Origin: a virus
Taxonomy: Duplodnaviria > Caudoviricetes
IMG/VR virus record: IMGVR_UViG_642791618_000001
Coordinates: 1 to 64,000 of that record
Strand: one strand, 5' to 3'
Length of the DNA: 64,000 nt
The notes below the pieces were generated by a model. That model searched no databases and was not told the origin of the DNA. It saw nothing but the letters and a program-made list of their open reading frames with translations. The position numbers were made by a program, and so were the translations under genes. Position 1 is the stretch's first letter. Each line of letters begins with the position of its first letter. Shown piece after piece: positions 1 through 19,182 of this stretch.

Positions 1-3000
1 TCAACGGCCTGCTGCACTTCCAGGGCGAAGTCGTGCGCCAGTGCGCAGCAACTCGGCGAACTGCACCGGGTCGCTGGTGGTGGCATACTTCGCTTCGACG
101 GTGTCGAGTTTTTCGAGGCACTCCTTTGCCCGGTCCAGCTTTTCCCTGGCGCCGAGTGTCTTGACGCCGGTCGGCCCGAAAAGAGCGCGCACACGATCAT
201 CGCCGAACACCACCACAAGCTGGTCGTTTACGATCTTCGTGTAGGTGTCGTTGAGCCAGTTCTCCGCCGCTTGTCTTTCTCCCGCGAGATGCTCGCGAAG
301 GATAACACAATAACGCTTCTCATTGTCACCGACGGCGGGATCAAGCCGGGCAAAGCCCATCTCGCAGAGAAGTGCCATCCACTGTCCGAACACCTCTTTT
401 TTTCTGAACTGTGGCTCGAAGGCGTAGCCCCAAAACCACTCGCGTTCTGCAACATCGAGCGACCACGTGCGACCGGCGAATAGGCGACGCAAGAGCGTGG
501 CGACGAAGGCCGGCAGTTGGGGCTCGGCTCCTTCATTCAACCGATCGAACAAGCCGGCGCGTTCTTCCGCACGATACGAACTCCTGGCCGCGGCGGAGCT
601 TTCCATTCGGCGCAGCAGATCGAGAATCTCCTCGACCTTGAGCCCGCTGTGTTCATCGGCATGAGCAAGCGTTCGGCGCGCCTCATCGCCGAGAAACATC
701 CAGCGCCAGGCGCTGAGCAATTGGTCGCGGTCTTCATCACGCAGCACGCCGCCCGGTCGGAAGGGCCAAGCGATGCGTCCGAGCTTATCCAGCGCCTCCC
801 GCCAGTTGCCGACGTGATCCTTGAGCAAACGATAAAAGCTCTGTGCGCGGGTGTGAAAGGCCGAGGTAAGCTGCCCGGAGCCCAGGACGAAGCCGCTCCA
901 CGTGGCCCGCGGGAGACCGATCTGATGGAGCATAGTCTCCTCGCGAGGCGATAGCTGAAAGACAGTAGCGAAGGTGCGGGAATCGCGCACCTTCGTCGAT
1001 GCGGCCGAGGCGATTTGATCCGCGAGAGCGCGCGACGACGTTAAGACCACCACGGGCGTTCGACCCAGCTTGTCGAACTGCGCCGTCACCACGTCACAAA
1101 GCTTCTCGTATTCCTCGATGTTCCGCACCCATGCGAGCACCGCGCGACCATCAGGATGCAGCTTCAGCCAATCCGCACGGAGTAGTCCCTTCTTCGTGCC
1201 GCCGACGGTCTCGATCGCGACGAAGTCCCCGCGCAGCGCCGGTGTGACTGGATCGTATTCCCAATGATCATCGAGCACCCGCATTGCACCGGTGAGGATC
1301 TGGCGGGCGCGTTCATTTTCGTTCTGCGCCTTGACGGCGACGAGAGCGGACTCGAGCGCGGTGTTGCCTTCCGTGTCGCGAAGCACCTGCGTCTGCGCGT
1401 TGTCGCGGCGGAGCCGCAGGTTGACCCGCTGAAGCATCGAGGCAGACGGTCCGAGATGCGTGGCGCGCTCGGGCGGAAACTCCGTCGTGTTGTGGAAAAA
1501 GAAACGCCAGAGAGCACGGGCCGCATCCTCCACCGCCGGATGCGGATAAAGCATCGCTGCAAGGTCGCAGAAATCCCGCTGTGCCAGCGGAACGAGTAAA
1601 ACGTGCCGGCCACCTTGCGGCGGTTGACCTTTGGTCTCGTGGATCGCGTAGGTGCCGAGATTGGCGAGGAGCTGCCGCAGGTCGAAGAAGCTGGTCGATG
1701 CCGCCGAGTTTCCAGCGCTCTTTCTCCCGCTGAACCGTCCGTCGCGCAACGCCTGCGCACATTGCTCCTCCGACCAGTCCACGCGCTGAAAGTATTCCGA
1801 GATTTCCTCGCCGTATTCGTTGTTCGCCTTGGTCAGCAGCTCGCGCTGTTCGTCCGTCCAAGCGGTGAGCGGTCGCGGGAGCTGGCCGTAGAGAAATTCC
1901 TCGACCGGTGCCTTCTGCGCCGCGGGAACGTTGATTCCGCGGAGCACGGTGTGGTCGAGCACATGCGTCTTCACGCGGGCGGATTTCGCCACGCACTCGC
2001 TGAAAATTCGCCCGAGCGTCGCTTCGCCACCGAGATCCCGCAGCACCTGATCCACGGAGGACATGATGACATTGAACCAACCGAAGTTGCCGCCGCTCAT
2101 CGCGTAGGCAGCTTCGACGACGCCGGTCGGATATTCCTGCGCCAGCCGCCCCTCTTCGCGGAGCTTGCGCACGAAATCGCTCACGTCGGCGAAGGCATTG
2201 CGGCTCAGGTCCACGAGTTCAAAGCGCCGCGCCGTGGACTGCACCTCGCGCAATTCGTCACCGATAGCTGGCGAGCAGAGCGCGACGTAGCGGAGCCACG
2301 GGAGTTTATGCCGCGGGTCTTCCTCCTTGATCGCCCGGGCGATTAGTTTGATCGCAGCACCGTCGAGCCGGCGGAGGTCGCCTTCCTCTTTCCCAAAGGT
2401 CACGGACTCAGTGATCGTTTCCAACTCGTCGAGCACCACAACGACGTAGGCGATGCCGAATGCTTTAAAATAGGCGTAGGCTGCTTCGCACAGGCGTGTG
2501 ACCAGTGTCTTGTCGCCATAGAGTTTTTCCGGCGTGTGTCCGGCATCTAGCTCCAGCGCCGCGGCGAGCTTGTCCTTTTCAAAGCCGAGAGCGAAGAGCC
2601 GGTCGTAGGCTTCCTTGGCGATGTTGCCCTGGATCGAGCCATCGAACTCCTCCTTCGCGAGCGGTAGCAGTGCTTTGTAGAGCCCGTAGCCAAACCAGTT
2701 GTCTGTGTTTTGGTGCTCATTCGCGATCTGCGTGTAGCGGATGAATAGGCCGAGATACTTGTCACGATCGGGCGCGTCGCGGAAGAGCGCGGAATCCGCG
2801 ATGTTGCTCCCCGACTGACGGGTGAACCAACCGCGACCCGCATCATTGATCTGTCCGATGAGTTCGTAGCCAAGACGCGATTTACCCACGCCCCACGGAG
2901 CCACCGCGGCGAAGACCTGCACGAAGCCTTCCTGGTCGTGTTCGACCACATGGATGAAGTGCTGGAAGGTTTGGAAAAACTCACCCTGACCGACGATCGG

Positions 3001-3087
3001 ATGCGTGAGAGGATAACCGGAGACACCACCGGGAGACCACTGGTGCTGGCGGCGTAAAGCTTTGGAGTCTGGAACAGAGGCCGGCAT
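1..3087 (-). CDS. Large P-loop NTPase (1028 aa), last visible gene of the defence-like operon
   Basis: Walker A APWGVGKS and Walker B VVVVLDELE. The TGA lies at positions 1-3, so the true C-terminus could be longer if there is an indel. Confidence 0.8.
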   Translation of the reverse strand: MPASVPDSKALRRQHQWSPGGVSGYPLTHPIVGQGEFFQTFQHFIHVVEHDQEGFVQVFAAVAPWGVGKSRLGYELIGQINDAGRGWFTRQSGSNIADSALFRDAPDRDKYLGLFIRYTQIANEHQNTDNWFGYGLYKALLPLAKEEFDGSIQGNIAKEAYDRLFALGFEKDKLAAALELDAGHTPEKLYGDKTLVTRLCEAAYAYFKAFGIAYVVVVLDELETITESVTFGKEEGDLRRLDGAAIKLIARAIKEEDPRHKLPWLRYVALCSPAIGDELREVQSTARRFELVDLSRNAFADVSDFVRKLREEGRLAQEYPTGVVEAAYAMSGGNFGWFNVIMSSVDQVLRDLGGEATLGRIFSECVAKSARVKTHVLDHTVLRGINVPAAQKAPVEEFLYGQLPRPLTAWTDEQRELLTKANNEYGEEISEYFQRVDWSEEQCAQALRDGRFSGRKSAGNSAASTSFFDLRQLLANLGTYAIHETKGQPPQGGRHVLLVPLAQRDFCDLAAMLYPHPAVEDAARALWRFFFHNTTEFPPERATHLGPSASMLQRVNLRLRRDNAQTQVLRDTEGNTALESALVAVKAQNENERARQILTGAMRVLDDHWEYDPVTPALRGDFVAIETVGGTKKGLLRADWLKLHPDGRAVLAWVRNIEEYEKLCDVVTAQFDKLGRTPVVVLTSSRALADQIASAASTKVRDSRTFATVFQLSPREETMLHQIGLPRATWSGFVLGSGQLTSAFHTRAQSFYRLLKDHVGNWREALDKLGRIAWPFRPGGVLRDEDRDQLLSAWRWMFLGDEARRTLAHADEHSGLKVEEILDLLRRMESSAAARSSYRAEERAGLFDRLNEGAEPQLPAFVATLLRRLFAGRTWSLDVAEREWFWGYAFEPQFRKKEVFGQWMALLCEMGFARLDPAVGDNEKRYCVILREHLAGERQAAENWLNDTYTKIVNDQLVVVFGDDRVRALFGPTGVKTLGAREKLDRAKECLEKLDTVEAKYATTSDPVQFAELLRTGARLRPGSAAGR

Positions 3088-3091
3088 AACT

Positions 3092-4294
3092 TCAGGCTGT
3101 GACGAGAGTGGCAGGTTTATCCAGCGCCGAGCGGCTGGCTGGAGCTTTTTTAATTAGACGTTCCTGTGCCCATTGCTCGGCCGCGGTGCGCAGCGCGCGG
3201 GCGAGCCGTTCACCGGCGCGATAGAAATGGTTGCTGCCAAAAATGCGCAGGCAGGCGCTGCCGAATTCCTCCGCAATCCAGTATCCGGGCCGGCGGGCGA
3301 CGCGTCCGCGTTCGTCGAAGGTCCACACTTTGCACCGTAGCAGCTCGCGGATGACTGGGGCAAGGCGGGCGTCGAGGGTGGCGGCATCTCGCGTGGGAGC
3401 GATCAGGCCCACGCCGAGGATGGCCAGAGCGCGTTGAAGCAGTTCGCTCAGTGGACCGCACACGACTTCGCGAGCATCCGGCAGGGTCACCACCACATCC
3501 ACACGCGGTGGCTGATGAAATTGCGCGATGTCGGCCACTTCGAGCGCCAGGCCGCCGGTGAGCCGCTCCGCCGCCCACGTTTCTTGCGCGAAGACAAGCT
3601 GCGCGAGCAGCATCGGCCACGGGCGCATCACTACCCAGCGCAGCACGGCTTCGTGGGGAGCATCGTCGGCTTCCCTTTCGGCTTTTGAGAGCGGCGCCCA
3701 GGTCCCGTCGAGAACCGCGGTTGCGTCATAGCAGGGCGCTTCGTCGGCATCGGGAAGGCGGAGGAGGCGGTTGCGCACCCAGGCCCCGGTCGGGTCGAGG
3801 GGGCGGAGGTCCACCGGGGCGATAATCTCCGAGGTTGGCAGCGATGCGGTTGCAGCGAGGAGCCTCAAGAGCGGCGGCGTGACGACGGCATTCTCGGCTG
3901 ACGCGCCCAGCAGGCTGCGTTCGAGTTCCGCGTGGGCCGTGGGTTTGAGCGAACCTTCCGGTAGGACGGCGCGCACTTCTTCGGCGGCGGGACCGAGCGG
4001 GCCGATGAGGTTACAGAGCGACGCAACATCTCCGCGTAGGCCGGCCTCGTGGACGCGGGCGGCGATGACGCGGAGCCAGCCGACACGCACCGCCGGTTCG
4101 ACGGCGGCGAGGGTGGCCACGGCTTCGGCTTCGTTCGGGAGCGCGGACCAAAGCTGCATGAGCGCGGGCGTAGCCACGGCACGGTTGCCGTCGGTAGAGA
4201 GCGCCCAAAGCCCGCGAGCCCGGCTGGCGGGAAATTCCCGTAAGTCGGACGCCGCCGTTTCGCCGGTCTGCAGGAGCCGAAGCAACCCGCGCAT
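3092..4294 (-). CDS. Uncharacterised 400-aa protein of the defence-like operon
   Basis: Long ORF whose ATG overlaps the protease stop (TGATG) and which ends 4 nt before the ATPase start. Confidence 0.75.
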   Translation of the reverse strand: MRGLLRLLQTGETAASDLREFPASRARGLWALSTDGNRAVATPALMQLWSALPNEAEAVATLAAVEPAVRVGWLRVIAARVHEAGLRGDVASLCNLIGPLGPAAEEVRAVLPEGSLKPTAHAELERSLLGASAENAVVTPPLLRLLAATASLPTSEIIAPVDLRPLDPTGAWVRNRLLRLPDADEAPCYDATAVLDGTWAPLSKAEREADDAPHEAVLRWVVMRPWPMLLAQLVFAQETWAAERLTGGLALEVADIAQFHQPPRVDVVVTLPDAREVVCGPLSELLQRALAILGVGLIAPTRDAATLDARLAPVIRELLRCKVWTFDERGRVARRPGYWIAEEFGSACLRIFGSNHFYRAGERLARALRTAAEQWAQERLIKKAPASRSALDKPATLVTA

Positions 4295-5127
4295 CAGGAT
4301 CGCCTCCTTTCCAAGGCTTCGGTCTCTCGATCCAGATAAGCGTCAGCTTCCGGGAAATCCTTTGCCAGCAGGTGAATCAACGCCTCGATCCGGTTAGCTT
4401 GGATTTCGCGGTCTTCCTCAAAGAACATGCTGTTGATTCCGATAAGGCGCATGCGCGCGGGAATCCAAAACAGCGAATCTTTGAACCGAGCTCTCCAAAT
4501 GCCACCACCGCTCATTCCATAGGGCTCAGGGAGGTCTTGCCATTCGCCCGTGAACACGTCGAGCACCCGCTCCGGATATTCCATTCGCATATTCAATGGG
4601 CGTGATCCCGGCTTGCCCCAATCAAAGTCCTCCGGAACGTTTGTTTGGTAGAGGAACGAGTCGTAGAGGTGGATTATGCCGTGTTCGGTCTTGTGCGCGG
4701 CTTCTGGCATTCCAAAAGTCATCGTCAGGTCTTCCGCCAGGCCTTCTGGAAACAATTCGAAGTCATCCAACGTCAGCCAGGATTTATGCGCCAATTGCCG
4801 CAGACACCATTCGGACGGGCGGAGATAGCCCACGTCGAGATCATCATCGCTCACGCCGCTCATAAAATCCTTCTCCTCGGGTGCGGCACGCAGATTGGAA
4901 GGTTTTTCCTGCGCCACAATCTGCAGCCGCTCCACGTCATGTCGCTCGATCACATGCGCCGCCGTCACGATTAGAGGAGTGTCGTTCGCACGCACCAACA
5001 TTCCCGTGCCATGGTCATAAGGCGTCTGCTCATTATGAGCAGCGATCACGACGGTCCGATCGAACAAATACCGGTTAATGGCGGGCTTTGCCTCCTTCAT
5101 TATCGCGATTTTCGTCTGATCAGTCAC
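4294..5127 (-). CDS. Trypsin-like serine protease
   Basis: HGTG..., VTAAHV (His), DLDVGYL (Asp), GMSGGGIW (Ser). No signal peptide evident. Confidence 0.85.
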   Translation of the reverse strand: MTDQTKIAIMKEAKPAINRYLFDRTVVIAAHNEQTPYDHGTGMLVRANDTPLIVTAAHVIERHDVERLQIVAQEKPSNLRAAPEEKDFMSGVSDDDLDVGYLRPSEWCLRQLAHKSWLTLDDFELFPEGLAEDLTMTFGMPEAAHKTEHGIIHLYDSFLYQTNVPEDFDWGKPGSRPLNMRMEYPERVLDVFTGEWQDLPEPYGMSGGGIWRARFKDSLFWIPARMRLIGINSMFFEEDREIQANRIEALIHLLAKDFPEADAYLDRETEALERRRS

Positions 5128-5133
5128 AGCGTC

Positions 5134-6675
5134 CTAAGTGGCTTGAGGTTGGTCGCTCTGTTGCAAGGCGCCATAAAGCGTCTCGATGTCGGGAAAGAGC
5201 GGATCGCCGGGCAGGTCAAAGCCAGCACGAGTGAGACGGGAGAGGAGAGCGCGGTCGGGCGCAGTGTCGCCGCGATCTAGTGCTTGCTGAGCAGCAGCCA
5301 GTTCTGCCTCCGTCACGCGGCCTTCGATGAGGGCTTCAACTAGTTGCTTTGAAGCAGTCGTCAGGCGCACTGCAGTGCGTCGCAGGTCAATAGATTGCCG
5401 TCGACCGGAAGAAACTGATTGGAAGAAATATGGGCTAACGCTTGCCGGGTCAGGCACGGGGAAAACGCGAAGGTTCTCTAATGAGAAAAATGCATTTATC
5501 GCTCCGTAGACCTGTTGTTCGATCAACACTTGGCCGAGGTTCGACTCGCAAAAGGCGGCAACGAAGTCCGCTGTCGCCAAATCGCGAATCGGAACACGCG
5601 CGATGTCTTGGTTGATATTGCAACCTCGAAGTTCCTCGTCGATGGCTGCCGCGTCACCGACGGTTCCTTTGATTGAGATAACCAAATCTCCCACAGCCAA
5701 TCTGCTCCGTTTGATCGTTTCTTCGCTGTCCGTGTCCATTCGTGGAAGCGTGTCCCGATAGATGTCGCCGTCATGAAAATCTTGCCCCCGAATCCAAGGC
5801 ACACCCACAGCGCCAAAGCGCGCATCCCCTGGTGTCCCCCCATTAGTGATGCCGGGATAAAGCGCCCCTAAAAAAGCGAGAGCGGTGCCAGATTTGCGGA
5901 TTGCCGCCTCGGCGTGCACGAAGCGCGGGTTGTGATACCATGCGTCCACGCGCCCGTTGAGCCGCTCAGGCCGAACCCTATAACCGCGCGTCATCGGTGC
6001 TGGTGAATAGTGGCTGAAGTATTCGTTGAAGGACGCCGCGACTCTCCGCGCTAAAGCCTTCCCTGCCTCCCTCAAGCCCTCGGCCTGGCGCACTTTCTCT
6101 CCGACGTAGCGTTCACCGTCCGAACTAAGCTCCGGTAACAAGACGTCCTTTGCATCCGTCACGCCCAAATACTGAATGATGCTACCCAGCGAGCGTCGTT
6201 CGAGTTGCCTCCGCCCGTAAGGAGTGAACAAAAAAGCTGCAACGAATTCGGTGTCGTGACTGCCATTGGGATGAATGGCGATGATGTGCTGGGTGATGTT
6301 CGCACGCGGAATCCAGTCCGGGACGACGCAAATTTTTTCGCCGACGCTGGCTTTGACGATGAGCAGGTCGCCGGGGCGAACCTCCGACGCAATCAGGTCA
6401 TGATGCACCGCCTCATCAAGGTGAGCCATGCCATCGTAGATGACAGTCATCTCGCCGACATTGCCGACACGGAAAAGGGGAACACCCGAGGCAAGGTAAA
6501 GCTCGCTCGGCAGTGCGGACCCGAACGGGCCGGCGAAGAACTTGCCGGTCTCGCGAAGTTCAACGGAGCCGAACTCACGCAAGATGCGTTCGTCGCGAAT
6601 GTGCTCGGGCCGGTAATAGTCCGGGTCGAGCCGCTTGGGCGCGAGAAGCAGAGAAGGAACGCGGGTGGCCAGCAT
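5134..6675 (-). CDS. hsdS: Type I RM specificity subunit (HsdS-like, two TRDs)
   Basis: TRD motifs GPFGSAL..GVPLFRVGNV, PGDLLIVKASVG, NITQHII, and NGGTP..GVPWIRGQD, GDLVISIKGTVG, NINQDIA. The ATG at 6675 follows the hsdM stop; the track start at 6753 overlaps hsdM. Confidence 0.85.
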   Translation of the reverse strand: MLATRVPSLLLAPKRLDPDYYRPEHIRDERILREFGSVELRETGKFFAGPFGSALPSELYLASGVPLFRVGNVGEMTVIYDGMAHLDEAVHHDLIASEVRPGDLLIVKASVGEKICVVPDWIPRANITQHIIAIHPNGSHDTEFVAAFLFTPYGRRQLERRSLGSIIQYLGVTDAKDVLLPELSSDGERYVGEKVRQAEGLREAGKALARRVAASFNEYFSHYSPAPMTRGYRVRPERLNGRVDAWYHNPRFVHAEAAIRKSGTALAFLGALYPGITNGGTPGDARFGAVGVPWIRGQDFHDGDIYRDTLPRMDTDSEETIKRSRLAVGDLVISIKGTVGDAAAIDEELRGCNINQDIARVPIRDLATADFVAAFCESNLGQVLIEQQVYGAINAFFSLENLRVFPVPDPASVSPYFFQSVSSGRRQSIDLRRTAVRLTTASKQLVEALIEGRVTEAELAAAQQALDRGDTAPDRALLSRLTRAGFDLPGDPLFPDIETLYGALQQSDQPQAT

Positions 6676-6679
6676 CTTG

Positions 6680-8731
6680 TTACTCCCCGCGGATGTATGA
6701 ACCCGTGATCCCTGCGAGATCGTTAGGTACGCCTTTGCTGTAGTCTTCGACATTGTTCTTCACCTCGTAGCCGAGGTGGTCGGCCACGCCCATGAACACA
6801 TCCTTCTGCGGCTCATCGGCAAAGTGCTCGGGGTCATTGGGACGGGCGTGACGTTTCTGGAGGTAGAGGTAGCTGGTCTTGGCTCCGGTCCCGGAGAGTT
6901 TGAAGGTGTCTGACGGCAGAGACACGACCGCTTTGACGATCGCCTTGCCCCCGTGGAACTCACCGGTGACCGGGTCTTTCTTCCCCATGATGTATTCGCG
7001 AACGTAGCGCTCGCCGGAATTGCAGAGGACTCCATCGGGCAGGATGATGATGAGTCGTCCGCCGGGCTTGAGCAGTTCCAGGCAGCGATCGATGAAGAGG
7101 ACGGCGGGATCGATGCTGGTGGGGCTGATGGGAGTCCACCGGCCCTTTTTGTCGGGGCTCGCGCCCATCGCCTTGCCGGCGACCGTCGGTGTGTAGCGAT
7201 AGACCTCTTTTTTCCCAATCGGGAACCAACCCATGCCTGCCACAAAGGTATAGGCCGTCTTGTCGCCATCGGGTTCGAGGTCGGTGCGAAAGCGTTTGAG
7301 AATCTCGCCCATTTCGGTCTCGTAGCGCTCGCGAGCTTCGTGCTGGCCTTTCTTGAACTTGGGCGTGCCGAATGGCGGATTGGTGCAGATGAGATCGAAG
7401 GTGCCGGGTTCGAGCTGATCGGTGGTGAGCGAGTTCTGGACGTAGAAGATGCGGGCCTTGGGCGCGCCGAGCAAAGCCATGTTCACGCGGGCGAGCGTGA
7501 CCATGACCGGCGCCGAGTCGGCTCCACAGAAGCTGTAGGTGAGATGGTCCTCGAAGAGTTTCTTCCGCTTCACGTCGTCGAGGTTCAGCTCGGCAAGAGC
7601 GCGCTGGAGCCGGCCGACGGCGACGACTCCGAAGCCGTAGGTGCCGCACGCCGGATCGCAATAGCGGAAGACGGGCTTGTCGCCTTTGTAGGCGGCGAGC
7701 AGCTCGGGGGTCTCGGCGAGGATGTCGTGGAAGGCGATGTCGAGCATCGACTGCTTGACCGGCGCAGGTGTGAGGTAGATGCCAAGCCCGCCCTTGCTGT
7801 CGAAATTGCCGCGCAGGAAGACATCGAACGCCCGCCCGAGGGCATCGGCCGCCATGTCGGCGAAGGTGCCGTTGGCTTTGATTTGGACGCCACGGTTGTC
7901 GGTGACGGGGCCGAGGTTTTGGATTAGGTCGAGGAGCGTCTCGTAATTGCGCTGCTGCTCGAGCTGGAGGTGGACATTCTTGTCGAAGATGGGGTGGGAC
8001 TCGCCCTTGTCGTCGGTGACGACGTAGTCCGCGTGGCCCTTGAACTGATCGAACGCGGCCTGGATCTCGGCGACGGCGGCTTTGCCGTTTGCCCGGACGT
8101 AGTCGGCATCGAAGACATCGGCGAAGCGGCGCTTCCGGTTTTCGTGGGTGAACTCAATGTTCGGATGATGAAGCCGGAAGGATTCGAGGAAGAGGAACTT
8201 GGCGACTTCGAGAATGATGTCGTTCTTGCCGTTCACTCGGTCCTTCACGGTCTGATAGACTTGCTCGTGGAACGAGTTGAAGCCGTTCATCAGGCGCTCG
8301 TATTGGCGCATCGACCAGCGATAGGTCGGGTCGGCTTTGAGGCGTTTGTATTCGCCGATCTCCTGGACAGTGGGAAGCTGGTCGATCTCGTGCGGCGGAT
8401 GATTCGCGATGTCGAAAGTGCGCTCGTGCTCGCCATCGGTGGCGATGGCGAAGACCGGGTAGGCATCCTCGGCCGTCTCGGTCGGCGTCAGCGCCCAGGC
8501 GCGGGATTGCACATGCTCCGGTCGCGCCTTATCCCACTGCTCGGGCGTGAGCGCGAGGAGCAGGAGGCGTGGGGTGAGCACGCCTTTATGCCGACCCCAG
8601 ACGATGGCGGCGGATTCGTCGTCGCCGTCGGTGAGCGGCTGTTCGAGATCGAAGCCGCGTTCGGCGAGCTTGGTGGTGAGGGACGCGAGGGCGTCCTTGG
8701 CGGTGAGTGTTTCAGTTTCAGTTTCAGGCAT
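6680..8731 (-). CDS. hsdM: N6-adenine DNA methyltransferase, HsdM family
   Basis: GIYLTP, motif I variant DPACGTYGF, motif IV TNPPFG, ILPDGVL, VVSLP..F. Confidence 0.92.
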   Translation of the reverse strand: MPETETETLTAKDALASLTTKLAERGFDLEQPLTDGDDESAAIVWGRHKGVLTPRLLLLALTPEQWDKARPEHVQSRAWALTPTETAEDAYPVFAIATDGEHERTFDIANHPPHEIDQLPTVQEIGEYKRLKADPTYRWSMRQYERLMNGFNSFHEQVYQTVKDRVNGKNDIILEVAKFLFLESFRLHHPNIEFTHENRKRRFADVFDADYVRANGKAAVAEIQAAFDQFKGHADYVVTDDKGESHPIFDKNVHLQLEQQRNYETLLDLIQNLGPVTDNRGVQIKANGTFADMAADALGRAFDVFLRGNFDSKGGLGIYLTPAPVKQSMLDIAFHDILAETPELLAAYKGDKPVFRYCDPACGTYGFGVVAVGRLQRALAELNLDDVKRKKLFEDHLTYSFCGADSAPVMVTLARVNMALLGAPKARIFYVQNSLTTDQLEPGTFDLICTNPPFGTPKFKKGQHEARERYETEMGEILKRFRTDLEPDGDKTAYTFVAGMGWFPIGKKEVYRYTPTVAGKAMGASPDKKGRWTPISPTSIDPAVLFIDRCLELLKPGGRLIIILPDGVLCNSGERYVREYIMGKKDPVTGEFHGGKAIVKAVVSLPSDTFKLSGTGAKTSYLYLQKRHARPNDPEHFADEPQKDVFMGVADHLGYEVKNNVEDYSKGVPNDLAGITGSYIRGE

Positions 8732-9119
8732 GGTCGAGGAGTTGGACGAGACCGGGGCCGAACAGGCGAAGGGCGCGATGTTCGCGGGTCAGAGCTTTGA
8801 GTTGCGCAGTCGAAGTCTGGAATTGAGCGGGGAGGAGTTTGCGGATTTCGTCCGGGTGGAGTGGCCCTCCGCCGCGGGCGCGGAGAATGCCGATGACGGC
8901 TTCGAGCAGCGCCTCCTGCGGGGAACGCTGGCCGGCAGATACGGCGATGTCGTTGCCTTCACTCCTGAGGTGGATCCCGGGCGCGACGGTGAGAAAGAGC
9001 CGGAGTTGTTCGCGAGTCCAATTACTGCCCGATTCACGGACCATGGCGTGGACCTGCGAGAGCGCCACGGGTGCGGCGCGCAGAGTCGGGAGCAGTCGAT
9101 CGAAAATGGCGGGGGTCAT
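8724..9119 (-). CDS. Small (131 aa) possible winged-helix protein
   Basis: ATG at 9119 overlaps the upstream stop (ATGA) and its stop overlaps the hsdM start. C-terminal PLHPDEIRKLL..STAQLKAL pattern is HTH-like (inference). Confidence 0.6.
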   Translation of the reverse strand: MTPAIFDRLLPTLRAAPVALSQVHAMVRESGSNWTREQLRLFLTVAPGIHLRSEGNDIAVSAGQRSPQEALLEAVIGILRARGGGPLHPDEIRKLLPAQFQTSTAQLKALTREHRALRLFGPGLVQLLDHA

Positions 9120-10465
9120 GGGCGCCGGAGTGTGGCTTGTTGGATAGCACGCGCGCGATGCAAAACGGAGCGCCATTGGCCATGGAGATCGTTCCGCCGA
9201 CGGAGCACGCGCGCGAGCGTGCGTTCCCAGCGGACGAGGGTTTCGTGCGGAAAGCGCGGGAGGAAGACGTGGGCAAGATCGGCGGCGCGGATGAACTGCT
9301 GAGCGGTGCCCGAGGTGAACAGGCGGATTTGCCGGGCGACGGGTTCGGTGGCGAGGATGAGCGCCCATGCGCCAGGCGTGTCGTGGAAACGCAGCCGCGC
9401 CCAATGATCGACGGCGAATACCGGAGCTGGCGGGTCGTCGGCCAGCCAGGCGACACGGGGATCGGAGCCGAGCGTGGACATCAGCACATCGCCGGCGTGA
9501 AGCGGCCGGCCGTAAAGCCGGGAGCCGGCCGAGGTGGAACGAGGTTCATCCGGGATGTTCAGGTCGAACGAGCGGCGAACATCGCTGAGGCGCAGTGTAC
9601 GCACTGGCTGGCCGGTTTCACCGAGCCGCTCCGACGGGGTCGGAAAGACAAGGTCAGGCAAGCGCTGCCAGTCGGCGTCCCGGTGAAGAGTCTCCGCCTG
9701 GGCGTTAGCCGCGACATGCACCGGGACCAGCGAGTCATCAATCAACTCGCAGGAGAACCAATCGCACCACGTCGGCGCGCCATAGCGAGATGCGGTTTCG
9801 TTCCAGCTCGTCCGGGCAACTTCGTTCTCGACGGTAGTACCGACCTCCCCGTGGAGTCGCATCAGCTCGGTGTCGGCCTCGGCCAACGCTGCTAGGGCCA
9901 CCCAGGCTTCCTGCGCCAAAGGCGCGAGCACTGCTGGCGGCGGAGGCAACGCGAGATCGCGCAGCACAGAAAGCCTAAGCCGCGGCAAAACGGCAGCTCC
10001 CGACCGGCGTACCAGCATATCCGTGAACGCCGCAGTGTTCAGCCAAAGAAGCCACCAAAAGGCCACGCTGCGGTCGAGGCCACGTAGGATTATGCAGTTT
10101 GCATCCACGGGATGCCGATGATGCACGGGCATGACCCACGCGGCGCGGATCGGCGCGATCTTCGTAATGAGAACGTCTGCAGGGCGAATGCACCGCGAAT
10201 GCTCGACCTCGGGCACTTCGCCATGCTGGGAGTCCATGGACAGGAAAAATTCTCCGATGTGGGCGGATCGGTACAAAATGGAGGCCTTCCCGTCGGCATC
10301 CGGATCCGCCCTCAGCCCTTCCAGGAAGTGGCGGGACGCTCCGCGAACTTTATTACTAAAGAATAAAAGATACGGACTGCGACAGAAGAAGGCGGCGTCC
10401 AGAACGTCAAAACCCGCTATGGCACTAGGGGAGATGCGCGAAGTGGCTGACGTTTCTGATTCCAT
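9116..10465 (-). CDS. Second, divergent HsdS-like specificity subunit
   Basis: IRPADVLITKI, LPRLRLSVLRDLALPPPP, LHAGDVLMSTLG, GTAQQFIRAADLAHVFLP: degenerate TRD and conserved-region pattern. Confidence 0.7.
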   Translation of the reverse strand: MESETSATSRISPSAIAGFDVLDAAFFCRSPYLLFFSNKVRGASRHFLEGLRADPDADGKASILYRSAHIGEFFLSMDSQHGEVPEVEHSRCIRPADVLITKIAPIRAAWVMPVHHRHPVDANCIILRGLDRSVAFWWLLWLNTAAFTDMLVRRSGAAVLPRLRLSVLRDLALPPPPAVLAPLAQEAWVALAALAEADTELMRLHGEVGTTVENEVARTSWNETASRYGAPTWCDWFSCELIDDSLVPVHVAANAQAETLHRDADWQRLPDLVFPTPSERLGETGQPVRTLRLSDVRRSFDLNIPDEPRSTSAGSRLYGRPLHAGDVLMSTLGSDPRVAWLADDPPAPVFAVDHWARLRFHDTPGAWALILATEPVARQIRLFTSGTAQQFIRAADLAHVFLPRFPHETLVRWERTLARVLRRRNDLHGQWRSVLHRARAIQQATLRRP

Positions 10466-10767: not shown

Positions 10768-11028
10768 ATGAAATATCTACACGAAGAGTTCGATTGTGCG
10801 GGCGGCGAGACCGTCCGCGTGGACCTCAACAAGCAGGCCAACGTGCGCCTGCTCGACGACAACAACTACCGCCACTTCCGCTCCGGCGGCAGGTATCGAT
10901 GCGGAGGCGGCTTGGCGAAAACGACGCCGGTCTTGCTCACCGTTCCCAACGCGGGTCGCTGGCATGTCGTCGTGGACCTCGGCGGTTACGCCGGCAGCGT
11001 CCGCGCGTCCATCACCCTGCTCAACTGA
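10768..11028 (+). CDS. DUF1883-family small beta protein
   Basis: ANVRLLDDNNY..F..G.RY..GG.A..TPV.L.VP..G.WHVVVDLGGYAGSVRAS matches the DUF1883 pattern as recalled. Confidence 0.8.
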   Translation: MKYLHEEFDCAGGETVRVDLNKQANVRLLDDNNYRHFRSGGRYRCGGGLAKTTPVLLTVPNAGRWHVVVDLGGYAGSVRASITLLN

Positions 11029-11038
11029 GGAAACGACC

Positions 11039-12031
11039 ATGGCAAAAATTCATTTCCTCAACGTTGGACATGGCGATTGCACCGTCATCGAACACGGAAA
11101 CGGCAACCTGTCGGTCATCGACATCAACAACGGCACTGAACTCGACGACGATTCCGCCGATATCCTCCTCCACGCTTATGCCCGCAACACCACGGACTAC
11201 TTGGCGAAATGGATGGAGTGGAAAATTGGAGGGGTTCAAACGACCAGAATTCTCGCGGAGGCGGGATACGAAATCGAACTCACGAACCCGATTGAATTCC
11301 TCAAGAAGAACTATCCGGGACAACCGATTTTCCGATACATTCAAACCCACCCTGATTTCGACCACATGCGTGGCCTCGCGGCTCTTGAGAACTCTGGCAT
11401 CCCGGTGCTCAATTTTTGGGACGTGGCGCACACCCGGAAGTGGAAGGAGGGTGAGGACAAAGAGAGCGACAAAGCGGACTGGGAAGCCTACCAGCGCTAT
11501 CGTTCGGGGAAGAACAGCGCCACGGTGCTCAACCTGCTCCGCGGCTCCCATGGGAAATACTACAACCAGGACGACACTCCTGGTTCCGGCGGCAACGGTC
11601 TCCACATCCTCGCGCCCACCACAGAACTGGTCGCGGACTTCGACGAAGACGGGAAGCGGAACGAACTGAGCTACGTCCTCCAATATCGGGTCGCCAACCG
11701 CCGGATTATCTTCGGTGGCGACGCCGAGCAGGCGGGCTGGGAATCCATCCACAACCATTACGGCGCGAATTTGAAATGTGATGTGCTGAAGGCCAGCCAT
11801 CACGGTCGCGATACGGGATACTATCAACCGGCGGTGAAGGACATGAGCCCAACGGTGGTCATCGTCTCGGTCGGCAAGAAACCCGAGACCGATGCGAGCG
11901 ACAAATACGCCCAATATTGCCAGGAGGTCGCTTCCACCCGCTGGTATGGAGACATCACCCTGGAAATTGATGGTGAGGGAAACATGGCATGGACGACGAG
12001 CAAGCAGCGCAAGAGTAGGAGGGCGGCCTGA
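11039..12031 (+). CDS. Metallo-beta-lactamase-fold hydrolase, ComEC/Rec2 type (probable nuclease/phosphodiesterase)
   Basis: FLNVGHGDC, QTHPDFDHMRG, FGGDAE, LKASHHG. Confidence 0.88.
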   Translation: MAKIHFLNVGHGDCTVIEHGNGNLSVIDINNGTELDDDSADILLHAYARNTTDYLAKWMEWKIGGVQTTRILAEAGYEIELTNPIEFLKKNYPGQPIFRYIQTHPDFDHMRGLAALENSGIPVLNFWDVAHTRKWKEGEDKESDKADWEAYQRYRSGKNSATVLNLLRGSHGKYYNQDDTPGSGGNGLHILAPTTELVADFDEDGKRNELSYVLQYRVANRRIIFGGDAEQAGWESIHNHYGANLKCDVLKASHHGRDTGYYQPAVKDMSPTVVIVSVGKKPETDASDKYAQYCQEVASTRWYGDITLEIDGEGNMAWTTSKQRKSRRAA

Positions 12032-12908: not shown

Positions 12909-13928
12909 CTAACGGATTTGATAGTGCCCCACTTCTCCGGCCCCTACGAACTCGATTTGTGGCCCAAGGCTCGCCAAATCCCGTTTCGCGGTGGCGATTG
13001 AGACGGTGAACTGCTTCTCGTAATCTCGTCGTGTCAGCCGCTTGCCTTTGCGGAGCTGGGTGAGGAACCACTGCTTTCGTTCTTCCCCATCCGATTTCTC
13101 CGGCACAGCCACCTTGCCGTTCTTGCGCGTGACGCCGGCAGCAACCTCGACGGTGAGTTTGGGCGAGAGCTGATACCCGCGAGGCGTGGTGGCAATGATG
13201 TCGTTGCCGTCGCACGCCAGCCCGGCCTGTTCGGCGAGCAACTCAGATGCTCGCTTGCGGAACGTCTTCACCGCTTCAGCGATGGCCTTCTCCCCGCGCT
13301 CCACCTTGATTCGGTCAGCGAGGTCTTTGCCGGAGCAGGCTGGGAGGACGCATTTCGCCGTCCGGACGCAGAGCAGATTGATGATCTGCCAGATGCGACC
13401 GCTCGTGTTTTCGCAGAGTCGGACGCCGCACAATTCAACCGCCTCAGCGGTGACGATGAAATCGCCGCCGGTGAATGGCGTCAGAGCATGGCGTTTGGTC
13501 GTCGAAATCCGCGTGCGTTCGGTCGATGGAAGCCGGCGAGCGATGGCGTCGCCGATGGCTGTTTCGAGATTGTCGAAGGGCTTCTTCACGAAGTCGCTGG
13601 CACCGAGCTTGAAGACGCGCGTGGCGAGGTCGGGGCTGTCGTGACCATGCGCGGTGACGACGATAACGGGCGTGTGCCGATGCAGGACTGAGCCGCGAAT
13701 CTGTGACAGCAAGTTCGTGCCGGTCGGGATGAGCGGGGTCTTGCCGAAGCGCGTCGGGAGTTCGAGATCGAGCAGGATGTAGTCGTAACCTTGCTCCTTG
13801 AGCCGCAGGAGCGCGTCGTCCTGGCAGCCGACGGAATCGAACGTGTGACCCATTGATTCGACGCGGTCTTCAAGCGCCTCACGGACGCCTGGATTGTCGT
13901 CGATGATGAGGGCGTGCAGTTTCACCAT
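12909..13928 (-). CDS. Response regulator: REC domain plus winged helix plus C-terminal DeoR-like HTH
   Basis: LIIDDN, ILLDLELP (phospho-Asp), VVTAHG, FVKKP; GYQL wing; LTRRDYEKQFTVSIATAKRDL. Confidence 0.88.
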   Translation of the reverse strand: MVKLHALIIDDNPGVREALEDRVESMGHTFDSVGCQDDALLRLKEQGYDYILLDLELPTRFGKTPLIPTGTNLLSQIRGSVLHRHTPVIVVTAHGHDSPDLATRVFKLGASDFVKKPFDNLETAIGDAIARRLPSTERTRISTTKRHALTPFTGGDFIVTAEAVELCGVRLCENTSGRIWQIINLLCVRTAKCVLPACSGKDLADRIKVERGEKAIAEAVKTFRKRASELLAEQAGLACDGNDIIATTPRGYQLSPKLTVEVAAGVTRKNGKVAVPEKSDGEERKQWFLTQLRKGKRLTRRDYEKQFTVSIATAKRDLASLGPQIEFVGAGEVGHYQIR

Positions 13929-15073
13929 AGCGTTTCCTCCCGGCCTTCAATGGGCAGCAGCACAGTTACCCGCGTTCCTTCGTTCTCCACGCTGTCGATG
14001 TTTATCGATCCTCCGTGGGCGGCGATGTTCCGCCGGGCGATGGGCAGGCCAAAGCCAGTGCCGCTAAGCTGCTTCGAAGTCCGCCCCGGCACGAAGCGGC
14101 GGACCTCTTCCAGTTCGAGCGCGGAAAAGCCCATCCCATCGTCGGCAATCTCGACCTCGATCCACTCGCCTCGCAAGGCACGGGCAACGAGACGTATTTC
14201 GCCAGCACGGAAGCGGTTCGCGTCAATGGCGTGAGCTTCAAACGCGTTCTTCACCAGATTGCGAAAGGCGAGGACGATCTGGACTCGAGAGACGCCGACG
14301 GTGAGGTCCAAAGGCACCTCGGCGGAAAACTGCACGGACGAAGCATCGCACCCCCGAGCGGCAAATTCCTCACGCACCATGTTCACGGCCTCATTCACCA
14401 AGTCGGCAATGCGTTCCGTTCGCCGTTCCCGCGACGGTGCTTGCGTGTAGAGGCGCATATCGTCGAGGAGACGTTCGAGGTAGCCGACGTGGGTAGTCAT
14501 CCGACCCGCGAGCCTTTGAGTCAGCGCGGCATCGGTGCCACCACTGCGGACGAGCTGCTCGATGTTGGATTTCATCGCCGTGGCCACGCTCCTCATCTCG
14601 TGGACCGACGCGCCGACGAGTCCTTCATACATCCGCTGCGCCACATCGCGGGCGAGCCGCGCAATCTTTATACCCTGCGATTTTTCCAGCCGAGCCAGAT
14701 CGTCTTCCACTTTATCCAGCCCGCGGCGGCGTTTCGCTTCAGTGTTCTGCCCACGTCGACGGCGCTCGACCGCACGTTCGGCGGAACCTTTGACGAAAGC
14801 ATTTTCATCGGCGGTCAGTTGTGCGGCGAGTGGGGCGAAATCCGAATCGGGCAGGACGTGCAGGGCGTCGGCGACTTCCTTCCGAACCTCCCACTTCGTA
14901 TCGCCTGCGAGCAGCCGGAGCAGCGCGGAAGCCGACGACGGCGCGGTTTGGCCTGGACTGAGCAGCAGTGCTGCGTCGCGCACGAACTGCGCGCGGCGGG
15001 TCCACGCGAAGGCGTTTCGATCCGCTGTCAACGCGGCCACTGCATCATCCAAACTGGGCACGGCCTCGGACAT
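13922..15073 (-). CDS. Cytoplasmic histidine kinase with N-terminal HEAT-like repeats
   Basis: H-box SVHEMRS, N-box RNLVKNAFEA, G1 IADDGMGF, G2 GTGFGLPIAR. EVRKEVADAL and FVKGSAERAV are HEAT-like. No TM segment. ATG 15073 overlaps the ATPase stop. Confidence 0.85.
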   Translation of the reverse strand: MSEAVPSLDDAVAALTADRNAFAWTRRAQFVRDAALLLSPGQTAPSSASALLRLLAGDTKWEVRKEVADALHVLPDSDFAPLAAQLTADENAFVKGSAERAVERRRRGQNTEAKRRRGLDKVEDDLARLEKSQGIKIARLARDVAQRMYEGLVGASVHEMRSVATAMKSNIEQLVRSGGTDAALTQRLAGRMTTHVGYLERLLDDMRLYTQAPSRERRTERIADLVNEAVNMVREEFAARGCDASSVQFSAEVPLDLTVGVSRVQIVLAFRNLVKNAFEAHAIDANRFRAGEIRLVARALRGEWIEVEIADDGMGFSALELEEVRRFVPGRTSKQLSGTGFGLPIARRNIAAHGGSINIDSVENEGTRVTVLLPIEGREETLW

Positions 15074-16950
15074 CAGAATTGGTATCGCTTGCCGCGTTTG
15101 CGGAATGCTTCCTCCCCGCCTTCGAGCAGTGTGACGATGCTGTCCTTGCACTCATCCACGGTGCCTTCGCGCGTCTTTCGTCCGTGCTCGCCATCGGACT
15201 CCATCACGACGACGCGCTCGGCCTCTCCAAGCACGGGGATGTTTGGATTGTGGGTCACGAAGATGAGCTGCCGGGTCGCTTTCACCGCTTGGATATTGGC
15301 CACAACAGCCTCGAAAATGAAGCTGTTATCGAGGTTGTCCTCCGGCTGATCGATGAGCAGCGGGTTTTCGCTTTCAAGTAGCAGGATTGGCAGAATCGTC
15401 GTGCATTTCTGGCCGGTCGAAAGCTGCGTCGAGGGTTTGTAGCCTTCGCCGTCGCGCAATTCGATGGTTGGCTCATCGAGTAACTCCACGGTTTCCAGCT
15501 CAGCGAGCGTTGTCGGACGATTGAACGTGACCATCATCTTGGCAGCCTGGTCTGCGTTGAGTTCGCCACGATCCATCAGCAAGCGCGAATCGCCCGCACG
15601 CACGAGAGCCGCCAATTGCGTTGGAGGCAGCAGCCGGACGAGCTTTTGCGCGATCATACCCCGCTGCACACCGGCGCCTTTGAGCGTGTCTTCGATGAGA
15701 CGCTGGTAGGTATCCGGGTTGCCATCCTGCGCCACGGTCACGCGGATATTCGGTGCGAGAGCACGGTTCAGCCGGTCGGCGATGCCCTTGCGAAGATTGA
15801 AGCGCCGATCGCGTAATTCGGACAGTTGCGTGATCAGCTTCTGATGTGACTCAGAGTGTTTCGCGAGTTGCCGGGCAATTTCGTCCGCTTCGCGTTTGCG
15901 CTCACCGAGTTCATTGCGGCGGCGTTCAAGAGTGGCGCGCTCTGCCGACTGTGCTTGATGCTGCTTGTGTTTCTCGATCAACTCGCGGAACGCGAGTTCC
16001 TGCTGCTCGTGTGCGTTTTGCAGCTCCGTCTTGAGGGCGCTCAGATTCGCGAGAAAATCCTCAATTGTGTGGCGCGCCTTGTTGAGGTGGCCGTCGGTCG
16101 TGGTCGCGCTCGCGAGCATTTGCGTGTGCAGCCGGGTCAGGATCGCGGCATTAGGGCCGGTGAGCAGGTCTTTAGGAAGGTGGGTTCCGGTGATCGCCTT
16201 GGCATGTCCGATGAGTGACTGGATCTGCTCTACGTATTCGCAAAGTGAAGTGCTCGCTGTGCGCACAGCCCGAACTTCCCGGTCGCGGTTCCCCTTGAGC
16301 CGGTGGGCTTCGTTGATCACGGCTGCGTCGTTGCCTTGCCCACCCGCGAATGCGGCGAGCTTCGCCTCAATCACGGGCAACTGCTTGGCTTCTTCCTCAG
16401 CGGTCGCGCGCTTCGTGGTCAGCGTTTCAACCTCGCGGGCCAGCGCTGTGATGTTCTGGCAGACCACGCTGATATGCGCATTCAGACCGACAATGTCGTC
16501 CGCCGTGAAACTGTCGATGAGGTCGAGTTGATACCGACTCTGATCGGCGATGGATTCGACTTCGTTTTGGCTGAACACATCGGCGCGGAAGAGCGACTTC
16601 ACTGCGATGCCTGTCGGCTGACGTTTCAGGTCCAGAACAATGGGGTCCTCGTCGACTGCCCGGCTGATGATGTAGTGGAGCCCGTCCGCGGTTTCGATCT
16701 CGAGTTCAATCCGGCCGCCTTCGAGGTTGCCATCGACGAGCGCCTCAATGCGTTTCCGAGCCGAAGCGGCCACTTCGCGACGCGGCAGCGCGTCCATCGC
16801 GTAGCGGATGAGTTCGAGGATGGTCGTCTTGCCGGTGCCGCGCGCGCCGATGATGCAATTGAGGCCGGTGGCGAGGTCGATGCGCACGCCATCGAGGAAG
16901 CCGCCAATGATCGAGAGGCTTTTGAGTTGGTGTCTGCGTTTCGTTTTCAT
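15073..16950 (-). CDS. SMC/RecN-like coiled-coil ABC ATPase (TrlF/AAA_23-like, no PHP domain)
   Basis: Walker A GARGTGKTT, long coiled coil, signature LSTGQK, Walker B LLIDQPEDNLD, H-loop FVTHN. Confidence 0.88.
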   Translation of the reverse strand: MKTKRRHQLKSLSIIGGFLDGVRIDLATGLNCIIGARGTGKTTILELIRYAMDALPRREVAASARKRIEALVDGNLEGGRIELEIETADGLHYIISRAVDEDPIVLDLKRQPTGIAVKSLFRADVFSQNEVESIADQSRYQLDLIDSFTADDIVGLNAHISVVCQNITALAREVETLTTKRATAEEEAKQLPVIEAKLAAFAGGQGNDAAVINEAHRLKGNRDREVRAVRTASTSLCEYVEQIQSLIGHAKAITGTHLPKDLLTGPNAAILTRLHTQMLASATTTDGHLNKARHTIEDFLANLSALKTELQNAHEQQELAFRELIEKHKQHQAQSAERATLERRRNELGERKREADEIARQLAKHSESHQKLITQLSELRDRRFNLRKGIADRLNRALAPNIRVTVAQDGNPDTYQRLIEDTLKGAGVQRGMIAQKLVRLLPPTQLAALVRAGDSRLLMDRGELNADQAAKMMVTFNRPTTLAELETVELLDEPTIELRDGEGYKPSTQLSTGQKCTTILPILLLESENPLLIDQPEDNLDNSFIFEAVVANIQAVKATRQLIFVTHNPNIPVLGEAERVVVMESDGEHGRKTREGTVDECKDSIVTLLEGGEEAFRKRGKRYQF

Positions 16951-16974
16951 CGAGACGACCAATCTTGCGAAAAG

Positions 16975-17140: not shown

Positions 17141-17206
17141 CTCATGGGATTTCTCGGCCCGTCACGCAAACCGCGGGGCACCGAAAATCAAAACCAAATC
17201 GCAACC

Positions 17207-19177: not shown

Positions 19178-19182
19178 ACGCC

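Follow-up and report, generated by a model that had tools for sequence, protein, structure and literature searches.

A conserved methylation-associated operon without HsdR, putatively 'MADS-like', in a defence-rich mobile island

Results

A conserved operon that continues past the edge of the window

At the left end of the window, by which we mean the whole 64,000-nucleotide (nt) stretch of DNA analysed here (positions 1 to 64,000 of IMG/VR virus record IMGVR_UViG_642791618_000001; G000:C60:193024-257023 in our coordinates), seven minus-strand genes encode a Type I-like DNA methylation module, a protease, a protein without known family and a giant ATPase. Our analysis indicates that they are probably the promoter-proximal (5') half of one conserved operon of 10-11 genes, which lies in a defence-rich mobile island and encodes a 'MADS-like' methylation-associated defence system. 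An earlier note, made from the letters of this DNA alone, had described the seven genes as co-oriented and tightly packed and had seen in them a methylation-linked multi-gene system without the restriction subunit HsdR; the minus-strand open reading frames (ORFs), joined by overlaps or by gaps of at most 8 nt (Table 1), bear out the description, and the comparisons below support the interpretation. Judged from these comparisons, the genes appear to belong to a conserved methylation-associated operon of a kind already mentioned in print.

The genes beyond position 1 were read in the 18 kb to the left of the window (L002), where the operon continues on the same strand with the remainder of the ATPase gene and with genes for a 271-amino-acid (aa) protein, a NurA-like protein, HerA, a 203-aa protein and a Ser/Thr kinase. 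The note's remark that no kinase is present therefore holds inside the window only, since the kinase is encoded 4-7 kb past position 1 in the same operon, as is HerA.

Related loci were collected from one genome per species with two peptide patterns, which returned at least 89 stretches with a relative of the ATPase; the best 80 of these 89 were taken with 10-kb flanks, and homologues were counted in each locus by tblastn with 15 queries (counts in Table 1). The core set comprises the small 131-aa protein, HsdM, HsdS, the 400-aa protein, the giant ATPase, the 271-aa protein, the NurA-like protein, HerA, the 203-aa protein and the kinase. All ten core pieces are found on the same strand and in the same order in 62 of the 65 loci with enough flank, the exceptions being L032, L081 and L082, and the linkage of the ATPase with HsdM, on which the earlier interpretation leaned, is kept in 68 of the 80 loci. 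These loci come from at least eight phyla, spanning Acidobacteriota, Planctomycetota, Cyanobacteria, Desulfobacterota, Sumerlaeota, Fibrobacterota, Bdellovibrionota and alpha-, beta- and gamma-Proteobacteria, and HerA retains 70-77% identity across these groups, a sign that a constrained machine has spread horizontally. Of 5,426 complete Escherichia coli genomes, 252 match the HerA gene of the Pantoea locus, always on the chromosome; with the ATPase as query, tblastn returned nothing from 72,556 plasmids or 50,697 phage records. The copy in E. coli O121 RM8352 is located behind McrB/McrC, beside a frameshifted integrase gene and a tRNA-Leu gene, and its products carry at NCBI the names 'HsdM family', 'subunit S', 'HerA domain-containing', 'serine/threonine-protein kinase' and, six times, 'hypothetical protein'.

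The methylation module

The assignment of HsdM with an NPPF motif in the earlier note is confirmed by the Pfam N6_Mtase domain (E-value 2.4e-21, residues 295-473), which follows an N-terminal extension of ~290 residues, by the PADLOC model MTase_I (PDLC03023, 814 bits), and by the NPPF and S-adenosylmethionine-binding motifs in the translation; its homologues in the related loci are 47-69% identical. The HsdS call is also confirmed, with the PADLOC Specificity_I model (1e-59) spanning both halves of the protein and hence two target recognition domains (TRDs). HsdS homologues share just 23-44% identity (in one locus 60%, over 63 C-terminal residues only), and conservation in the family is high in the central (0.49) and C-terminal (0.37-0.51) regions and low in the TRDs (0.14-0.27). 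Of the 211 E. coli genomes that match the S gene, only 17 align with it over at least 80% of its length, and in the sampled rest ~17% or less aligns; for the HerA gene of the system, 249 of 252 genomes reach this coverage, at 95-99% identity. Such a poorly aligned S gene next to a well aligned HerA gene is the signature of TRD swapping, and HsdS behaves as a swappable specificity subunit whose TRDs are exchanged even within one species.

The first gene of the operon was also called HsdS-like in the note, and correctly so: although the PADLOC Specificity_I match is weak (4.7e-5), its family aligns with the HsdS family over the full length and 417 columns in hhalign (probability 99.3, E-value 1.5e-20). 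Its pattern of conservation is the reverse of that of true HsdS, peaking inside the TRD-like cores (0.45) and low in the linkers (0.13-0.23), so that the protein would present a fixed surface, unlike HsdS. Homologues are present in 32 of the 65 loci with enough flank, and in Enterobacterales a McrB/McrC pair takes the same position, directly before the small protein (L065, L068, L070 and E. coli O121 RM8352, L092 1-3516). The inverted conservation, the absence from half of the loci and the replacement by McrBC together make it unlikely that this protein specifies a second variable methylation motif, as the note had proposed from the presence of two specificity subunits; by sequence, it is rather an apparent accessory, a full-length, divergent HsdS homologue with two TRD-like halves. 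Two loci depart from the common layout in this region: L029 carries two tandem HsdS genes plus the S-like gene (4543-7654), and L071 (2395-11248) has an IS66 transposase within the S region and an ATPase that is split after 430 aa.

The small protein encoded between the S-like protein and HsdM found no match in Pfam, PADLOC, NCBIfam or PDB sequences. As a query it recovered homologues in 24 of the 80 loci, which rose to 63 (and to 60 of the 65 with enough flank) when its 128-aa equivalent from E. coli was added as a second query.

The giant ATPase: reading frame and fold

The note had treated the ATPase as a complete gene of 1028 aa, and this does not stand. Among the matches listed for it, 117 of 119 relatives measure 1401-1441 aa, and the ATPase ORF reaches at least 1380 aa in 72 of the 80 related loci. 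Past position 1, a 390-aa ORF shows 79% identity to residues 1024-1412 of the closest relative, comparison with which places the junction of the two frames at GARLR|LEVQ. The deposited assembly reads CGCCCTGG at positions 23-25, where one C fewer restores the frame. A public sequencing run contains 96% of the sampled words of this stretch and may be the genome's own source; a 96-kb Logan contig from this run (word depth 384) has one letter fewer at 23-25, the other 999 bases being identical over 1000 nt. The length of the relatives, the continuing ORF and the independent contig thus mark the 1028-aa length as an assembly artefact, and the simplest reading is that the deposited consensus is wrong at this base and that the ATPase gene is intact.

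The Walker A (WGxGKSR) and Walker B (LDELET) motifs are invariant in 48 ATPase sequences, from whose alignment the structure of the 1028 window residues was predicted with a mean pLDDT of 83.7 and a pTM of 0.69. With this model, the top Foldseek match in the PDB was the N-terminal half of BrxC from an Acinetobacter BREX complex (9zll_B, E-value 1.8e-4, 491 columns), followed by PAB2304, ORC4 and TnsC. In VIA-align, residues 15-373 of the model superimpose on Cdc6 of the Drosophila ORC–Cdc6 entry 7jgr with a Z-score of 12.3 (246 residues, root-mean-square deviation (rmsd) 4.0), and residues 12-549 on BrxC over 337 (Z 11.8, rmsd 5.6) or 348 residues (Z 11.3, rmsd 5.7), the longest alignments obtained. 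The predicted fold thus suggests that the giant ATPase carries an ORC/Cdc6-type AAA+ head, most like that of BREX BrxC; the fold searches barely cover residues 560-1413. No Pfam, PADLOC or NCBIfam model matches the ATPase sequence, which in the Atlas falls nearest to AAA_22, AAA_16, nSTAND1 and KAP clusters at 0.92-0.93, which can serve as a lead only. A search of its profile against PDB sequences was discarded, as it returned only coiled-coil noise (e.g., influenza HA2 at an E-value of 0.004, over profile positions 1170-1263).

HerA, its putative NurA partner and the proteins without known family

HerA of the operon matches solved HerA chains in the PDB, those of defence systems included, at E-values of 3.9e-47 to 2.8e-32. 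The gene for the 383-aa protein adjoins the HerA gene and overlaps its start, and its Atlas look-alikes score 0.97 (231 of 256 features), with 30 of 30 matches in NurA-bearing clusters; Pfam NurA is assigned to 58%, 31% and 12% of the members of these look-alike clusters. Against PDB sequences, the profile of the 383-aa family gave nothing below an E-value of 0.05.

For the 400-aa protein, which has a homologue in 77 of the 80 loci and no match in Pfam, PADLOC, NCBIfam or PDB sequences, AlphaFold produced a confident model (pLDDT 92.1, pTM 0.89). In a wide VIA search, residues 202-380 of this model reached Z-scores of up to 6.2 to ORC/Cdc6, MarR and ArsR winged helices, which weakly suggests a winged-helix-like fold in the C-terminal half. 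A Pfam scan of 66 members of the unknown and slot families (see below) gave no significant match; in the 271-aa family, 3 of 11 members touch wHTH-PRTase_assc at E-values of 0.016-0.27, again a lead only. The 203-aa family has four invariant residues, D85, E101, E103 and K117, from which a PD-(D/E)XK nuclease had been guessed. This guess found no support: a search of the family profile against 1.84 billion representatives yielded 132 clusters, all of stand-alone proteins of ~190-220 aa or of fragments, and Pfam gave nothing on 22 distant members.

The protease and its slot

The call of a trypsin-like protease in the note stands in part, as His58, Asp98 and Ser206 (in TAAHV and GMSGGG contexts) are invariant in 14 of 14 aligned sequences, but the Pfam Trypsin_2 model reaches an E-value of only 0.012 and PADLOC PDC-S45 is weak (1.9e-5). 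Its inclusion in the system, on the other hand, has to be given up. No homologue is found in any of the 80 related loci, nor, at E-values up to 1e-5, in 400 other genomes of the phylum, and only 15 matches, all of them metagenomic, turned up among 5.8 billion proteins. The protease gene sits between the HsdS and 400-aa genes, in a slot that is occupied by passenger genes elsewhere: 30 of 69 loci have an HsdS/400-aa or a 400-aa/ATPase junction that is wider by 400 nt or more, and in the other 39 both junctions are shorter than 200 nt.

The slots hold 49 inserted ORFs with a length of 120 aa or more, which we grouped. The families are 1) proteins of ~355 aa between the 400-aa and ATPase genes (L008 8943-10010 and 11 other loci) and 2) proteins of ~400 aa between the HsdS and 400-aa genes (L048 6798-8003 and 6 other loci), both without a Pfam or PADLOC match, 3) YhcG/DUF1016 PD-(D/E)XK nucleases (a seven-member cluster, three of which were scanned; PADLOC PDC-S02), 4) PIN proteins (4 members) and 5) Fic proteins (4 members; PDC-S04/SoFic). 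Singletons comprise Schlafen/AlbA, BRO-N (PDC-S13) and DUF4058 proteins, a HATPase and STAS-like pair, and an IS66 transposase. The slot passengers are of the gene kinds that PADLOC lists as single-gene defence candidates, and the distribution of the protease identifies it as an apparently strain-specific passenger in a hot slot, outside the conserved system.

Comparison with known systems

A classical Type I restriction-modification (RM) system was rejected for want of a linked HsdR. None is found by Pfam, PADLOC or NCBIfam among the 13 operon genes, those past position 1 included, and a tblastn search with the genome's own HsdR detected none in the 80 related loci, a single query by which distant HsdR families could be missed. 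The sole TIGR00348 match of the genome is on another contig, beside its own HsdM and HsdS: there, an apparently complete classical Type I RM locus (L093, G000:C37:38000-56000) encodes an HsdR of 1111 aa, next to ORFs that are of S size or similar to HsdM. The operon nevertheless shares with Type I systems an HsdM with NPPF, a two-TRD HsdS in which the centre and the C-terminal region are conserved, and TRD swapping within a species; it differs from them in lacking HsdR, in the place of which eight other conserved genes are found.

BREX was likewise rejected, as scans of the operon genes with Pfam, PADLOC and NCBIfam gave no match to PglZ, to PglX or to a Brx model; neither a PglX-type methylase nor BrxA, BrxB or BrxL was detected. 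The resemblance to BREX/Pgl consists in a large ATPase with a predicted ORC/Cdc6-type AAA+ head, for which the N-terminal half of BrxC gave the longest structural alignment, and in being methylation-based, without a classical restriction enzyme and with a kinase, which is present in type 2 BREX according to a passage of PMC12839542. In contrast to BREX/Pgl, the methylase is of the HsdM/HsdS type and HerA is present with a putative NurA partner. Compared with the HerA-NurA complex and with HerA-based defence (Sir2-HerA, DUF4297-HerA), the operon similarly has a stand-alone HerA, with HAS-barrel and DUF87, next to a NurA-like gene, but here HerA shares its operon with a methylase, a kinase and a giant AAA+ ATPase. 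Passages from two papers, on BREX-related systems (PMC12839542) and on Dnd and HerA/FtsK capture systems (PMC10853773), describe other architectures.

MADS is described in passages of PMC13662399 and bioRxiv 10.1101/2023.03.30.534895 as an operon of eight genes, which encode a methylase, an S subunit, the OLD-like MAD3/MAD4 pair, a kinase and the MAD7/MAD8 ATPase-nuclease module. According to the same passages, the MADS of Pseudomonas aeruginosa SMC4386 (mad1-mad8) discriminates self from non-self by N6-methyladenine (m6A). MAD6, MAD7 and MAD8 are mandatory in its authors' detection model. Both operons lack HsdR and combine a Type I-like methylase and S with the domains of a Ser/Thr kinase and of a HerA/FtsK-class ATPase. 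The operon studied here, however, has no OLD-like MAD3/MAD4 pair, its kinase is a stand-alone protein of 480 aa with TPR repeats rather than the 1402-aa MAD6, a canonical 560-aa HerA with a NurA-like partner stands against the 1852-aa MAD8, and a giant BrxC-like AAA+ ATPase and four proteins of no known family are added.

Among the PADLOC models, mad2 matches HsdM (3.5e-16), mad5 HsdS (7.5e-14), mad6 the kinase (1.6e-46) and mad8, at the domain level only, HerA (7.3e-29), with no operon match for mad7, and for mad3 and mad4 none at E-values up to 0.1 among the window genes or 0.01 among the downstream genes. The NCBIfam cut-offs are all missed, by MAD2 on HsdM (111 against 720 bits), by MAD5 on HsdS (87 against 400) and by MAD6 (125 against 460). 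We also obtained three canonical MADS loci from Pseudomonas genomes through the MAD2 model, two of them above its cut-off. There, phmmer found partners only for HsdM (4e-20), HsdS (3e-9) and the kinase (1e-34), and the profiles of the ATPase and of the 400-, 271-, 383- and 203-aa families found nothing at E-values up to 1; HerA is related to MAD8 by a BLAST E-value of 0.003 only, and hhalign gave the NurA-like and 203-aa families a probability of less than 1% against MAD6, MAD7 and MAD8. With cut-offs missed 4- to 6-fold and no MAD3, MAD4 or MAD7 counterparts in the profiles, canonical MADS was rejected; the missed cut-offs and null comparisons describe an operon that is MADS-like in some of its parts but not a member of MADS.

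The architecture, which the earlier note could not name, can at least be named loosely, its best fit being the putative 'MADS-like' system of a 2023 preprint. In that preprint, Maestri et al. (bioRxiv 10.1101/2023.03.30.534895) mention an 11-gene 'MADS-like' system (madl1-madl11) with an N6-methyltransferase, related to MADS and present in 10 of 444 P. aeruginosa islands; in the passages of the literature that we searched for this architecture, it is the only source to mention 'MADS-like'. An operon of ~11 genes, an N6-methyltransferase and a location in defence islands are common to both, with ten conserved genes and the S-like gene on our side, whereas the copy in the window also carries the serine protease as a passenger and has an ATPase frame that is broken in the deposited assembly. 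The 90%-identity HerA cluster of the Pseudomonas locus includes one P. aeruginosa protein (531 aa, on a 9.5-kb contig). We regard the identity of the two as likely.

The surrounding island

Table 1. Features of the operon and its surroundings. Positions are those of the window unless preceded by L002; the last column gives the number of related loci, out of 80, with a homologue.
Feature	Position	Strand	Length and remarks	Loci
S-like protein	9116-10465	-	449 aa	35
Small conserved protein	8724-9119	-	131 aa; start overlaps S-like stop, end overlaps HsdM start	24 (63 with second query)
HsdM-type N6-adenine DNA methyltransferase	6680-8731	-	683 aa	68
HsdS specificity subunit	5134-6675	-	513 aa; 539 aa if alternative start 6753	73
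Trypsin-like serine protease	4294-5127	-	277 aa	0
Core protein without known family	3092-4294	-	400 aa	77
Giant ATPase, first 1021 codons of ~1413-aa gene	1-3087	-	deposited ORF 1028 aa, runs past left window edge	80 (N-terminal part)
One-base surplus	23-25		GGG on + strand, CCC in gene; breaks ATPase reading frame in deposited assembly	
ATPase C-terminus	L002 16869-18041	-	390 aa	75
Core protein, no family match	L002 16057-16872	-	271 aa	73
NurA-like by Atlas (putative), no family match	L002 14909-16060	-	383 aa	72
HerA	L002 13212-14894	-	560 aa; Pfam DUF87 8.6e-43, HAS-barrel 0.0014	72
Core protein, no family match	L002 12626-13237	-	203 aa	70
Ser/Thr kinase, Hanks-type, with TPR repeats	L002 11187-12629	-	480 aa; Pfam Pkinase 1.8e-37 and TPR	70
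Island left end	L002 3002-11121 (G000:C60:178001-186120)		recombinase, ParB/RepB, HNH, GmrSD_N+HNH and DUF932 genes	DUF932 1; GmrSD-like 0
Divergent protein	10796-12031	+	411 aa	
Response-regulator receiver, HATPase_c/HEAT and ABC-type ATPase genes	12909-16962	-	ATPase 629 aa	
AAA_24, SF2 helicase and AAA_25 genes	17144-23319	+	helicase 496 aa	

Past the kinase, the gene order is DUF932, GmrSD_N+HNH, HNH, two ParB/RepB genes and a large serine recombinase, after which the left end of the island borders sulfatase genes; the GmrSD_N+HNH protein is NsnA-like (1.5e-23). On the other side, a 411-aa protein encoded divergently from the operon matches PADLOC PDC-M48B (4.4e-28) and, weakly, LmuA, and has no Pfam match. 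It is followed by a response-regulator receiver protein, a HATPase_c/HEAT protein and a 629-aa ABC-type ATPase with AAA_21/AAA_23 domains, the last matching PADLOC Ppl (2.6e-27), mad3 (1.3e-14), LmuB and AriA-like models; this trio may be a further defence module. Next come an AAA_24 protein, a 496-aa superfamily 2 (SF2) helicase (ResIII and Helicase_C) and an AAA_25 protein, which together resemble the replication genes of a mobile element. The helicase lacks a nuclease domain and does not provide the operon with an HsdR.

Discussion

From the composition of the operon we infer a mechanism in which an M2S methylase would methylate a strain-specific bipartite site as the mark of self. Scanning DNA and sensing unmarked sites would fall to the BrxC-like ATPase and, with it, to the 400-aa and 271-aa proteins (the latter two possibly of winged-helix type), and the sensing ATPase would then license a HerA-NurA translocase-nuclease, in the place of HsdR, to degrade the invader; the kinase may regulate or back up this degradation, by analogy with the kinases in MADS and Pgl. 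A more far-reaching proposal, which we put forward tentatively and hold to be possible rather than probable, is that this is a mode of restriction not previously shown in any system, in which the absence of a strain-specific, M2S-deposited m6A mark would be read by a BrxC-like ORC/Cdc6 machine that releases a Hanks-kinase-controlled NurA-HerA, and in which the two slots flanking the 400-aa gene would recruit swappable back-up effectors activated by the core, among them the rare serine protease in this copy and PD-(D/E)XK nuclease, Fic, PIN or Schlafen genes in others.

Several results weigh against the 'MADS-like' defence reading and the mechanism built on it. The likeness of the ATPase to BrxC is at the fold level only, with a TM-score of 0.32 when normalised to the target and 10-12% identity; ORC/Cdc6 chains score as well as BrxC on the same model, and the Pfam model DUF499 does not match the ATPase. 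The NurA assignment is a putative one, a language-model look-alike, with Pfam NurA touching 1 of 11 scanned members of the 383-aa family at an E-value of 0.11. For the 400-aa model, the best Foldseek match in the PDB has an E-value of 0.9, the profiles of the 203-, 271-, 400- and 131-aa families give nothing below 0.05 against PDB sequences, and the roles of these four proteins in the proposed model are guesses. Concerning the name, the main text of bioRxiv 10.1101/2023.03.30.534895 gives the gene number and the methyltransferase of the 'MADS-like' system and no gene-by-gene list, no P. aeruginosa protein occurs among the 120 listed relatives of the Pseudomonas ATPase, and the passages of literature searched hold no experiment on this system.

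Three other explanations deserve consideration. The operon might consist of two or three independent units lying side by side, an orphan Type I methylase (M and S) serving epigenetic regulation and a separate defence or repair system of ATPase, NurA-HerA and kinase. The junctions around the 400-aa gene do tolerate insertions, IS66 included, in 30 of 69 loci, and the front position is exchangeable between the S-like protein and, in Enterobacterales, McrBC. The order and strand of the genes are nevertheless kept in 62 of 65 loci across many phyla, both junctions remain shorter than 200 nt in 39 of 69, and in none of the 80 loci does the ATPase block occur without M and S save at contig ends or in rearrangements (L081 and L082 among those with enough flank). 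Swapping of TRDs in S is, moreover, typical of restriction-linked Type I methylases and not of regulatory orphans, so that its occurrence here fits the former better, and we consider an assembly of independent units unlikely. That the operon instead serves the mobile element itself, in maintenance, DNA processing or a HerA-NurA repair pathway with an epigenetic mark, would accord with the serine recombinase, ParB/RepB, DUF932 and replication-type module (AAA_24, SF2 helicase, AAA_25) of the island, and with the function of HerA-NurA as a DNA-end resection machine in archaea and some bacteria. But the ATPase is absent from the plasmids and phage records searched, genes typical of defence surround it and fill its slots, the S subunit varies within a species and the domain types are those of MADS, a tested defence system, all of which makes service to the element quite improbable.

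A divergent canonical MADS (mad1-mad8) or a subtype of BREX might be suspected from the PADLOC mad2, mad5, mad6 and mad8 matches to HsdM, HsdS, the kinase and HerA and from the BrxC-like head of the ATPase. Given that the NCBIfam MAD cut-offs are missed, that the unknown families find nothing in canonical MADS loci and that PglZ, PglX and Brx matches are lacking, this explanation is very improbable indeed. A 'MADS-like' methylation-associated defence operon in its own right is the reading we prefer.

For the annotation of the window, these results mean that the length of the ATPase is an assembly error, that the protease is cargo and that a reading limited to the window overlooked the kinase and HerA. 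More generally, the family is widespread, from at least eight phyla to 252 of the 5,426 complete E. coli genomes, and strongly conserved, yet its proteins are mostly 'hypothetical' at NCBI, and PADLOC and NCBIfam have no model for five of the ten core proteins. It unites components of Type I RM, BREX and MADS with a putative NurA-HerA motor. If the more far-reaching proposal is true, the family bridges Type I RM, BREX and MADS, and its likely identity with 'MADS-like' would supply a name but no mechanism. The enterobacterial copies make the system directly testable, and working it out would bear on how restriction is achieved in methylation-based systems that have no classical restriction subunit, a question common to BREX and MADS.

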